Below are positions 3,174 through 16,360 of a stretch of DNA of 26,237 bases, piece after piece; positions within the stretch are counted from its first letter, which is position 1, and each line of letters begins with the position of its first letter. The position numbers and the translations under genes were made by a program. This stretch comes from an uncultured virus (IMG/VR IMGVR_UViG_3300011768_000001) (lineage: Duplodnaviria; Heunggongvirae; Uroviricota; Caudoviricetes). The stretch covers positions 62,001 through 88,237 of IMG/VR virus record IMGVR_UViG_3300011768_000001; one strand, 5' to 3'. The notes below the pieces were generated by a model. That model saw nothing but the letters and a program-made list of their open reading frames with translations. It made no database searches and was not told where the DNA came from.

Positions 3174-3559
3174 ACATTGTGAGTATTGGCTTAGTTTTTG
3201 AGAATTGTGAAAGCTGTATTATTCCTATTGAATGTGTATCTTCGTTCTATTTAGGGAACATCTCTGATACAATTAGCTACTACTCCCTGAACTCCTATAT
3301 TAATCGTTCAAAAAGTGTAGGTGAATTATTGATTTCTTTTAGTGAAAGATTTTACATATACGATAATAAAACTACCTGCGATGAGCCCGTTTTAGATAGA
3401 ATTAAGAAGTATAACGATATTTGTAATATCACTGTCTATTTTGAAGATGGTTTTCAGGAGTCTTATAATATTATATGGAGAGAAGGTAGCACTGACTATG
3501 AAAATCTAGGTCAGAGTTTTGATGAAGAAGGCGGTGTACTTTTCTTGGGGATTAAATGA
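3170..3559 (+). CDS. hypothetical protein (FENCE motif)
   Basis: ORF with ATGA coupling and GAGGTG RBS. Confidence 0.75.
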   Translation: MNIVSIGLVFENCESCIIPIECVSSFYLGNISDTISYYSLNSYINRSKSVGELLISFSERFYIYDNKTTCDEPVLDRIKKYNDICNITVYFEDGFQESYNIIWREGSTDYENLGQSFDEEGGVLFLGIK

Positions 3560-14822: not shown

Positions 14823-14916
14823 CTGCACTTTGTTGTCCTATTAACTCATAAGTGCAGTGCACACCAAAGTTGTATAGGGTGCACTTGATTTCTGATAATA
14901 TTATATAAGTGCAGTG
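14823..14916. repeat. two tandem inverted-repeat units TGCACTT-N19/20-AAGTGCA
   Basis: Half-sites at 14824-30, 14850-56, 14880-86 and 14907-13; extra GTGCAC at 14857. Confidence 0.75.
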
Positions 14917-14929
14917 GAGTGTGGTAGTA

Positions 14930-15109
14930 ATGAGACATAATGGCCTTAGTGAGCATGTACAAGGTGACGATTTGGAGTATGTTCAAAACTTTATAAATAC
15001 ATCCAATAAAGGACTTAGTAATAATTTTATTGGGTATGAGGTAGTGGTAGATTTGATACTAGCTTTAAGGGACACTAATGAAAGATTAAAAGAGTTAGAA
15101 AGTAAATAA
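14930..15109 (+). CDS. hypothetical protein
   Basis: ATG with upstream GGAG; last rightward gene. Confidence 0.6.
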   Translation: MRHNGLSEHVQGDDLEYVQNFINTSNKGLSNNFIGYEVVVDLILALRDTNERLKELESK

Positions 15110-15124
15110 CAAAACCCCCTGGAA

Positions 15125-15160
15125 AGACACTTACTAATACAAGCTAAGTGTCTGTTTTTA
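15125..15160 (+). terminator. intrinsic terminator ending the rightward block
   Basis: AGACACTTA/TAAGTGTCT stem followed by GTTTTT. Confidence 0.6.
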
Positions 15161-15509
15161 TATGTCCAAAATATTTATAAGCCTTATTCTGCAAGGGCTG
15201 TAGGAAGATTCATACTTTCAAAATACTTGTCGCGGTAGCTGAAGAGTGCATCTGTTCTGTAAAATCTTGGATATCTATCTGAGGTGTTTAACGCGTCTAC
15301 CCACCACAAGCAATACCCATGCCATAATTCCAAAATATGCTGATAAATTATTCCCTATCAAACTTCCTCTCCCAATAGATGTTCATCACAGATATTATCC
15401 AATACCCTTAAGCTAACCCTGGCATGATATTAGGCTTGCATAGATGATGCCAAGATGCTTACTAAATAAAACACTTGACATTACGAGAATAATACTCCAC
15501 AGGATACCA

Positions 15510-15537
15510 ATTTAACATAATGGGTGTTATGCGAACT
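15510..15537 (-). other. XerC/XerD dif-like recombination site
   Basis: Minus strand AGTTCGCATAA-CACCCA-TTATGTTAAAT; the XerD arm is identical to the proteobacterial consensus. Confidence 0.85.
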
Positions 15538-15830
15538 GTGTAGAAGGTATCGAGCATACTATACCTATCCTGTCAAGCTATCTATTTCACACTGTCTACA
15601 CACACCTTCCCTAACACATTATAGGGCCATATGTAAAGACTAAGATGATTGTTATAGAATACTTTGATTAATTGTAATTGGCTGGTAGATTGTAGCTATA
15701 TAGGTTGACAAAGGGATTGGTTTGTGTATTTGGGAGGGATTATTAGGTGGAATGAAATCGTTACAGGAGGGAAATGTGTACCGGCTTAACTACCTTTGGT
15801 AGTCTCGCCTACTGATAGTATCCTCATATA

Positions 15831-15996: not shown

Positions 15997-16263
15997 TTAG
16001 AAACGTACACCATTTGCACGATACCACTCACAAGCTTCATCAGTTACGAAATCACAGCAAGCTAAGATAGTCTCAATACTGCACAACCAAGCTGCATAGA
16101 AGTCTTCTGTATAACGACCATTCTCAGCGTACACTGTTACACCATCGGTGTGTTCAGCATTGTCTAAGGCTTCACAGTGAACACGTTGAACTATGTCTAG
16201 ACTGGACCCAAACTTAGCGATAGGCATGTCGTCCAGTTTTTGCATCAGTTCACGTTTGTTCAT
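15997..16263 (-). CDS. hypothetical protein
   Basis: Start reassigned to MNKREL (AGGAG RBS), downstream of its own promoter. Confidence 0.75.
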   Translation of the reverse strand: MNKRELMQKLDDMPIAKFGSSLDIVQRVHCEALDNAEHTDGVTVYAENGRYTEDFYAAWLCSIETILACCDFVTDEACEWYRANGVRF

Positions 16264-16302
16264 TTCTATACTCCTTTGAGGGTTTGTCTCTCTGTGGTCT
16301 TC

Positions 16303-16331
16303 ATTATCTCTAAAAGATGCTCGTCTGTAAA
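16303..16331 (-). promoter_or_regulatory. sigma70-type promoter
   Basis: TTTACA-17bp-GATAAT with an A-rich upstream tract. Confidence 0.7.
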
Positions 16332-16360
16332 GCTTTATTTTCATCTAAATCGCTGTATAT

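Follow-up and report, generated by a model that had tools for sequence, protein, structure and literature searches.

Phage P1 carries the lox site of its Cre recombinase in the terminal redundancy of its genome, where recombination yields a circle independently of homologous recombination, and the same system resolves dimers. Recombination of the dif type normally requires FtsK or accessory proteins on supercoiled DNA. Plasmid multimers are resolved at psi (pSC101) and cer (ColE1), where the core is flanked by accessory DNA on its XerC side, and the psi spacer is GATCCA. The cer site is described in PMC5357621 as 280 bp of non-coding DNA made up of a 30-bp core and about 180 bp of accessory DNA, and the hijacking of dif by elements that lack an integrase is well documented in the same source. 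Carnoy & Roten 2009 (PMC2731167) list the chromosomal site as GATTCGCATAA for Pseudomonas aeruginosa and as AGTTCGCATAA-TGTATA-TTATGTTAAAT for Neisseria meningitidis. In the open-access full texts of PMC and bioRxiv, Xer hijacking is reported for filamentous phages, gokushoviruses, non-tailed vibriophages and plasmids. Here, we describe a site of this type in a tailed phage that looks virulent.

The window, that is, the whole 26,237-nt stretch of DNA analysed, is the final 26 kb of an 88,237-bp IMG/VR record (G000; GC content 40.4%), which is classed as 'linear' and rated 100% complete by CheckV; no terminal repeat was detected in the record. On the minus strand, positions 15510-15537 of the window read AGTTCGCATAA-CACCCA-TTATGTTAAAT, exactly the dif-like site that a sequence-only reading of this DNA had claimed. 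The core matches all 20 arm bases specified by the pattern TTCGCATAA-N6-TTATGTTAAAT. With up to three mismatches allowed, this pattern has one match in the window, against a mean of 0.02 matches in shuffled sequences (any match in 2 of 100 shuffles), so that the chance expectation is at most 0.02. The XerD 11-mer occurs once in the entire 88,237-bp record, and a mismatch-tolerant scan of the record found no second Xer-type site, the runner-up candidates having 5 of the 20 specified bases wrong. G000 and its relative G001 carry one site each. Given that 20 of 20 arm bases match at the correct 6-bp spacing, the likeness to dif is not incidental, and the central region between the arms, at 6 bp, falls within the 6-8 bp range of Xer core sites. 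A 31-aa ORF that spans the core (15462-15557, minus strand) is not considered a gene: in an alignment judged by eye, it is reduced to 16 codons followed by a stop in a third relative, L169, and its changes in G001 are mostly non-synonymous. Taken together, the 28-mer is predicted to be a genuine Xer substrate, which we consider probable.

The record encodes a contractile-tailed phage (myovirus), with genes for the sheath, baseplate, portal, major head protein and TerL, a T7-type replisome (primase-helicase, PolA, a gp2.5-like SSB and an exonuclease), and further genes for nucleotide metabolism, many HNH endonucleases and a RecBCD-inhibitor-like protein. Its TerL is 45-48% identical to those of the cultured phages nearest by this protein, Pseudomonas myoviruses from the Otagovirus and Pakpunavirus groups. 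We screened 161 ORFs, 159 of them with PHROGs, while a Pfam scan of 20 ORFs included 2 new ones. Among these 161 ORFs, neither an integrase or other recombinase nor a repressor, a partition (ParA/ParB) gene or a plasmid-replication gene was detected. The absence of a recombinase, initially proposed for the window, therefore holds genome-wide by PHROGs and Pfam, and the apparently lytic nature ascribed to the phage fits a genome that looks virulent and is devoid of lysogeny genes. As for the host, the tailspike and the endolysin gave no host-specific matches, and no tRNAs were found in the window.

The density of homing-type endonucleases in this genome is very high: at least nine HNH-family and three phrog_681 endonuclease ORFs are scattered through the replication, structural and early regions, and two ORFs with tape-measure matches have an HNH ORF in between. 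On the minus strand of the window, at 1086-2451, adjacent ORFs of 240 and 245 aa match the C-terminal and N-terminal halves, respectively, of phrog_4756 (440 positions), and this pair may be a split or frameshifted gene.

The assignment of the XerC and XerD arms made in the sequence-only reading is in line with the chromosomal sites tabulated by Carnoy & Roten 2009 (PMC2731167). The two 11-bp arms do not differ from those of N. meningitidis, and in at least 120 gamma- and betaproteobacterial species the same arms, joined by TGTATA, make up chromosomal dif; species with identical arms include members of Pseudomonas, Halomonas, Neisseria and the Orbaceae. Since the arms are common to many genera, they do not name the host. 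The likeness to chromosomal dif extends to the 6-bp length of the spacer and to the location at a turning point of GC skew. Nevertheless, CACCCA and TGTATA have only their last base in common and differ at five of six positions, the site is located on an 88-kb phage and there is no KOPS-like polarity: the E. coli-type motif GGGNAGGG, which may not be that of the host, is found twice on the plus strand and three times on the minus strand of the 88 kb, with no convergence towards the site.

The spacer had been called non-chromosomal and plasmid-like, and plasmid searches bear this out. A 36-nt query matched 1429 plasmids, 943 of them from Acinetobacter, and many of these sites agree with the phage core at 27 of 28 bases, including the C-rich spacer ending in CCA, as in ...TTCGCATAA-CAGCCA-TTATGTTAAAT and ATTTCGCATAA-CGCCCA-TTATGTTAAAT. 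With the island around the core as a 291-nt query, the core alone matched, in four plasmids, all from Acinetobacter. One Acinetobacter genome contained 11 such sites, with spacers such as CGTCCA, TGCCCA and CGGCCA, and four genomes of other genera contained one each. None of the plasmids or genomes searched contained the exact 28-mer or any of the flanks. Acinetobacter pdif sites differ from the phage site in that they form inverted pairs around modules, whereas the phage has one site and no plasmid flank in common with them. Exchange of pdif modules, one of the roles initially suggested, requires paired sites and is thus hard to reconcile with one site per assembled genome. The spacer likeness to Acinetobacter is suggestive only as regards the host.

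Similar cores are also present on other viral contigs. Among the IMG/VR matches listed, 111 sites could be parsed, of which 35 have TGTATA as the spacer and 33 a spacer that ends in CA. Non-chromosomal Xer cores on the viral contigs listed show a strong preference for CA at spacer positions 5-6, beside the XerD arm, and the same preference is seen in Acinetobacter pdif sites. In one family of IMG/VR contigs (L053, L057, L065, L075, L080, L094 and L114; up to 59.5 kb), the dif-like cores have a conserved context, ...AATAATTAA.TCG...GATTCG...AGTT-core-...TTTGTTC, with CACACA, CATACA or CCTACA as the spacer. A second family (L025, L047 and L074; 37-39 kb) is characterized by ...TTTG-core-...ATCTTAACAATC.TCTTTCTT.

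Arms equal to those of many chromosomal dif sites, in a virus that has no integrase, recall the IMEX elements (CTX, VGJ and TLC phages, gokushoviruses and non-tailed vibriophages), and the phage or a defective derivative could by the same route integrate at the host dif via XerCD. We consider this very improbable. IMEX elements are small, temperate and non-tailed and are found integrated at dif, whereas the phage described here has no lysogeny genes, no integrated form in the genomes sampled and a mismatched spacer. Having one of six positions in common with TGTATA, CACCCA lacks the XerC-side homology of VGJ/CTX-type integration as described in PMC5357621. The exact 28-mer had no matches in a set of one genome from each of 185,579 species. 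Prophages of this lineage were not detected in a sample of 802 genomes from two families, in which capsid matches did not exceed 31% identity (18 of 401 Moraxellaceae and 11 of 401 Pseudomonadaceae genomes), and no integrated copy was found among the genomes sampled. Integration at chromosomal dif, as put forward in the sequence-only reading, is therefore unlikely.

The ORF map confirms that the core lies in the largest ORF-free stretch of the window, where two gene blocks converge (Table 1). The last position of the plus-strand block is 15109, or 15416 should a 56-aa GTG ORF prove real, and the minus-strand block ends at 15997. On the scale of the whole record, four transcription blocks are distinguished; two small-gene blocks converge on the site, and one of them diverges from the block with TerL and the structural genes. 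Cumulative GC skew peaks at this gap, and the switch at the site simply tracks, in our view, convergent transcription. The hairpin with a T-run at the end of the plus-strand block is likely a terminator, which the simple terminator scan missed; in G001, its stem is kept and its loop is changed. Another hairpin, ACTACC TTT GGTAGT, is found at 15789-15803, just downstream of the minus-strand block, and is kept in both G001 and L169.

Table 1. Features of the convergent gap and its surroundings (positions in the window)
Feature	Position	Strand	Description
Xer-type core, 28 bp	15510..15537	-	20 of 20 specified arm bases matched; single copy
XerC arm AGTTCGCATAA	15537-15527	-	11 bp; plus strand 15527-15537
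Spacer CACCCA	15526-15521	-	6 bp; plus strand 15521-15526
XerD arm TTATGTTAAAT	15520-15510	-	11 bp; plus strand 15510-15520
Conserved non-coding island, 251 bp	15463..15713	.	91.2% identity to G001; candidate for (part of) a direct terminal repeat
XerC-side flank, 176 bp	15538..15713	.	150/176 columns invariant, three sequences
XerD-side flank	15463..15509	.	28/47 columns invariant; conserved solely at the outer end (TAAATAAAACACTTGACA)
Inverted repeat, left arm, imperfect, with TTGACA motif	15464..15480	+	17 nt, 76% complementary to 15571-15587
Inverted repeat, right arm, TTGACA on the minus strand	15571..15587	-	Pairs with 15464-15480
Hairpin and T-run, end of the plus-strand block	15125..15153	+	9-nt perfect arms, 11-nt loop
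Last clear ORF of the plus-strand small-gene block	14909..15109	+	No family match
Last ORF of the converging minus-strand small-gene block	15997..16344	-	No family match

Within the gap, the core is embedded in a conserved island, where it lies between the two arms of an inverted repeat with TTGACA motifs, of which the left arm is kept in relatives; a third copy of the TTGACA-containing motif is located at 15697-15710. These three motifs, two of them paired around the core, would also suit a palindromic 28-mer that is no Xer substrate but belongs to a phage-specific terminal element such as a packaging signal, an origin or a promoter cluster, the more so as part of the island occurs without the core and the packaging ends of relatives lie in the same region. 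Such an element would leave the match of 20 of 20 arm bases at the correct 6-bp spacing unaccounted for, and this type of core recurs in unrelated phages that do not have the surrounding island. Moreover, no sigma-70 promoter scoring at least 9/12 was found inside the island. We therefore regard this explanation as improbable. The simple scan detected no terminator in the island either, an Rfam search gave 0 matches at E values up to 1, and the predicted RNA folding of the island was no better than that of shuffled sequences (z-scores of -1.0 and -0.9).

A scan of IMG/VR with the arm pattern returned at least 112 loci. One of them (L077) belongs to G001, a record of 83,253 bp in which the 28-mer is identical, spacer included. 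G001 is a collinear mosaic relative, 27.9 kb of which could be aligned to G000 at a mean identity of 85%. The island stands out in this comparison, since its 251 nt (15463-15713) have sharp bounds beyond which the flanks are unalignable, and the small genes around it show no detectable similarity between G000 and G001. Two exact sub-patterns of the island had G001 as their sole match across IMG/VR. Scanning metagenomes with a 20-mer from the island retrieved G001 again and the third relative, L169, a 17,277-nt contig from a metagenome that it has in common with G001. The core of L169 is AGTTCGCATAA-CACCCA-TTATGTTCAAT, with one change relative to G000, and the spacer is identical in all three carriers. 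Across these three sequences, 27 of the 28 core columns (15510-15537) are invariant, compared with 178 of 223 columns in the rest of the island (Fisher p=0.036), and the 30 nt that adjoin the core on the XerD side are scrambled in L169. From this pattern, the core appears to be an Xer-type site under some constraint, and the three carriers are close enough for kinship to explain much of the identity.

The comparison was extended to sequencing runs by means of Logan contigs (shares of at most 0.14). Contigs of relatives from four runs, belonging to four studies, cover the island. One contig from run X1 matches 15463-15713 with 13 differing letters and then continues into unlike DNA, and three contigs from run X3 are alike solely from 15545 rightwards. 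The XerC-side flank can thus exist without the core, which points to a function of the island in its own right.

The site is not shared across the family. We searched 17 records, drawn from 29 TerL-related loci plus L077, with L122 left out; their TerL proteins are 49-97% identical to that of G000 (G001 apart), and 10 of the 17 are at least 90% complete. Neither the island nor any site with up to three mismatches was detected in 16 of them, G001 being the sole exception, and the site is thus dispensable for the family. The sequence-only reading had made its case depend on conservation in relatives, and this is borne out for G001 and L169 but not for these 16 records. A 29-nt match to the island in G012 (E 6e-4) was taken as noise. 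In the phage collection, megablast with 1 kb and blastn with the 291-nt island gave no matches, and blastn with 8 kb gave similarity in the PhoH gene alone.

Given that just three related contigs carry the site, it might be passenger DNA, a pdif-like site gained by illegitimate or Xer-mediated recombination and of no use to the phage. The best matches that include the spacer are indeed Acinetobacter plasmid pdif sites, and the shared ancestry of three close carriers could account for much of their identity. A passenger, however, would hardly be expected to remain the best-conserved part of the island next to 30 scrambled nucleotides, and neither its exact 28-mer nor its flanks could be traced to any plasmid or genome searched. 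Similar cores in the terminal repeats of unrelated virulent phages with other hosts, described below, are also hard to explain by accident. Overall, a passenger origin seems rather unlikely.

The geometry of the locus resembles that of psi and cer, which likewise combine a core with a one-sided stretch of conserved non-coding DNA of roughly 180 bp. Here, a 28-bp core adjoins a conserved XerC-side flank of 176 bp, conservation on the XerD side is weak, and the 6-bp spacer ends in CCA, with the CA beside the XerD arm that psi also favours. Accordingly, the locus could be a multimer-resolution site of this type, at which XerCD and host proteins would act on the core and about 176 bp of accessory DNA in a plasmid-like carrier or a pseudolysogenic state. 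In contrast to psi and cer, some relatives (the three X3 contigs) have the flank but no core, and the replicon is a virulent-looking phage with linear replication. A plasmid-like state is also at odds with the lack of partition, repressor and plasmid-replication genes among the 161 ORFs and with the virulence of the cultured relatives, among which phiPsa374 is reported as virulent, with no lysogeny detected. In addition, the long non-coding side of the comparable site in phage WFH (see below) is the XerD side. We consider a psi/cer-type function quite unlikely.

The cultured relatives provide an indication of where the genome ends should lie. They have direct terminal repeats (DTRs), reported as 1165 bp in Adele and 526 bp in phiPsa374. 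In phiPsa374, the plus-strand small-gene block ends at 97,322 and is followed by the non-coding DTR at 97,762-98,287. The left copy of the DTR occupies 1-526, and the minus-strand small-gene block then extends from 649 to about 24 kb, where it diverges from a block with tRNA, tail-fibre, TerL and structural genes. Adele has the same arrangement, with its DTR in the non-coding gap of converging small-gene blocks. Read in reverse, G000 runs from minus-strand small genes through the gap with the island into a small-gene block with PhoH and dCMP deaminase and, beyond the divergent junction, into tail fibres, TerL and structural genes. As this block order is common to G000, phiPsa374 and Adele, the gap that holds the core is the position where synteny predicts a terminal repeat. 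We infer that the site is in or beside the DTR of the G000 phage, and the sharply bounded island is a candidate for the whole or part of this repeat. In tblastx searches, the terminal small genes of phiPsa374 and Adele showed no similarity to G000, so the synteny argument draws on block order and not on orthologous terminal genes. No dif-like site with up to four mismatches was found in the terminal regions of phiPsa374 and Adele.

The 'DTRs' annotated for relatives in IMG/VR were rejected as real ends. They are assembly overlaps of 101-127 nt in arbitrary genes and are therefore uninformative in this respect. With regard to sequence motifs, the 526-bp DTR of phiPsa374 (1-526) contains three copies of TATATAGTGCAACGGTAAT, and one similar motif, CTATATAGCTACAAT, is present near the distal edge of the island. 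Both the phiPsa374 and the Adele DTR start with AGCGA.

Cores of this type were also detected at the ends of cultured virulent phages. Using the 36-mer as a blastn query against 50,697 phage records, we obtained matches in 44, about two dozen of which are Wifcevirus, a group infecting E. coli and Shigella. In Wifcevirus WFH (vB_EcoM_WFH, MK373776.1), the site reads AGTTCGCATAA-CAGGTA-TTACGTTAAAT; it is located at 3337-3364, between annotated convergent terminators, and is repeated at the right end (L165:5636-5663). Both copies are inside a terminal repeat of 3701 bp, about 340 bp within its inner boundary, in keeping with the repeat of 'about 3.7 kb' described for this phage (Korf et al. 2019, PMC6563267). 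Because the site is inside the DTR, each genome has two copies of it. The T7-like Ralstonia phage RpT1 (OK274245.1, Autographiviridae) contains an AT-rich core, CCTACGCATAA-TAACCA-TTATGTTAAAT, at 82-109 and again near the right end (L171:1073-1100), in both cases inside a GC-rich repeat of roughly 200 bp at the two ends of the record. In the Elizabethkingia phage EKP1 (OM284015.1), GGTGCGGATAA-CGACCA-TTATGTTAAAT is found at 56-83, 56 nt from the start of the record and directly upstream of the terminase gene. In the open-access full texts of PMC and bioRxiv, we found no description of dif-like sites in the terminal repeats of virulent tailed phages.

The reading that we favour, tentatively and at a little under an even chance, is that the site lies in the terminal region of the phage and that host XerCD recombines its copies on phage DNA, leading to cyclisation, monomerisation or re-joining of genomes. 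A small lineage of virulent, DTR-packaging myoviruses would keep the 28-mer in its gene-free terminal region, and XerC and XerD of the host would bind, pair and recombine the copies. Depending on where these copies are, the outcome would differ: a circle would arise from the two copies at the ends of a single incoming linear genome, concatemers from copies on separate molecules, and monomers from copies within concatemers or circular multimers. No phage recombinase would be required, and the scheme would be a counterpart of P1 Cre-lox with the enzyme supplied by the host. Its proposed logic is that of P1, and sites inside real DTRs are observed in WFH and RpT1; the two differ in that the recombinase would be that of the host and in that the G000 site is placed within a repeat by synteny alone.

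Since the spacers of the phage copies are identical, recombination from copy to copy by XerCD is the most economical mechanism. Both the binding of XerCD to the site and the outcome of recombination are predictions. The invariance of the core, the identity of the island, the absence of a recombinase, the synteny with DTR positions and the parallels in WFH and RpT1 make this XerCD-based recombination of phage copies the most likely of the readings considered. Counting against it, there is no obvious reason why a phage with T7-type linear replication should need a circle. The lack of the site in 16 of 17 relatives and in the termini of phiPsa374 and Adele also tells against it, as do the X3 flank without a core and the usual dependence of dif-type recombination on FtsK or accessory proteins, no KOPS bias of the E. 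coli type having been seen.

A broader version of this proposal is that DTR-packaging virulent phages of several unrelated groups, namely, the G000 lineage, the Wifcevirus of E. coli and a T7-like phage of Ralstonia, place a host Xer site in their terminal repeats, and that XerCD circularises or concatenates their incoming DNA. The resulting circle or concatemer would shield the ends from exonucleases and feed replication. At present, we regard this generalization as doubtful.

Hijacking of Xer sites is established for plasmids and small integrative elements, but not for large virulent tailed phages. Should the site be functional, it would mean that a lytic phage relies on a housekeeping recombinase of its host for handling its genome ends or multimers. 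If true, this would add a new host factor for infection, with a possible route to resistance via xerC, xerD or ftsK, and it would offer a simple account of how genomes with repeated ends may circularise without homologous recombination.
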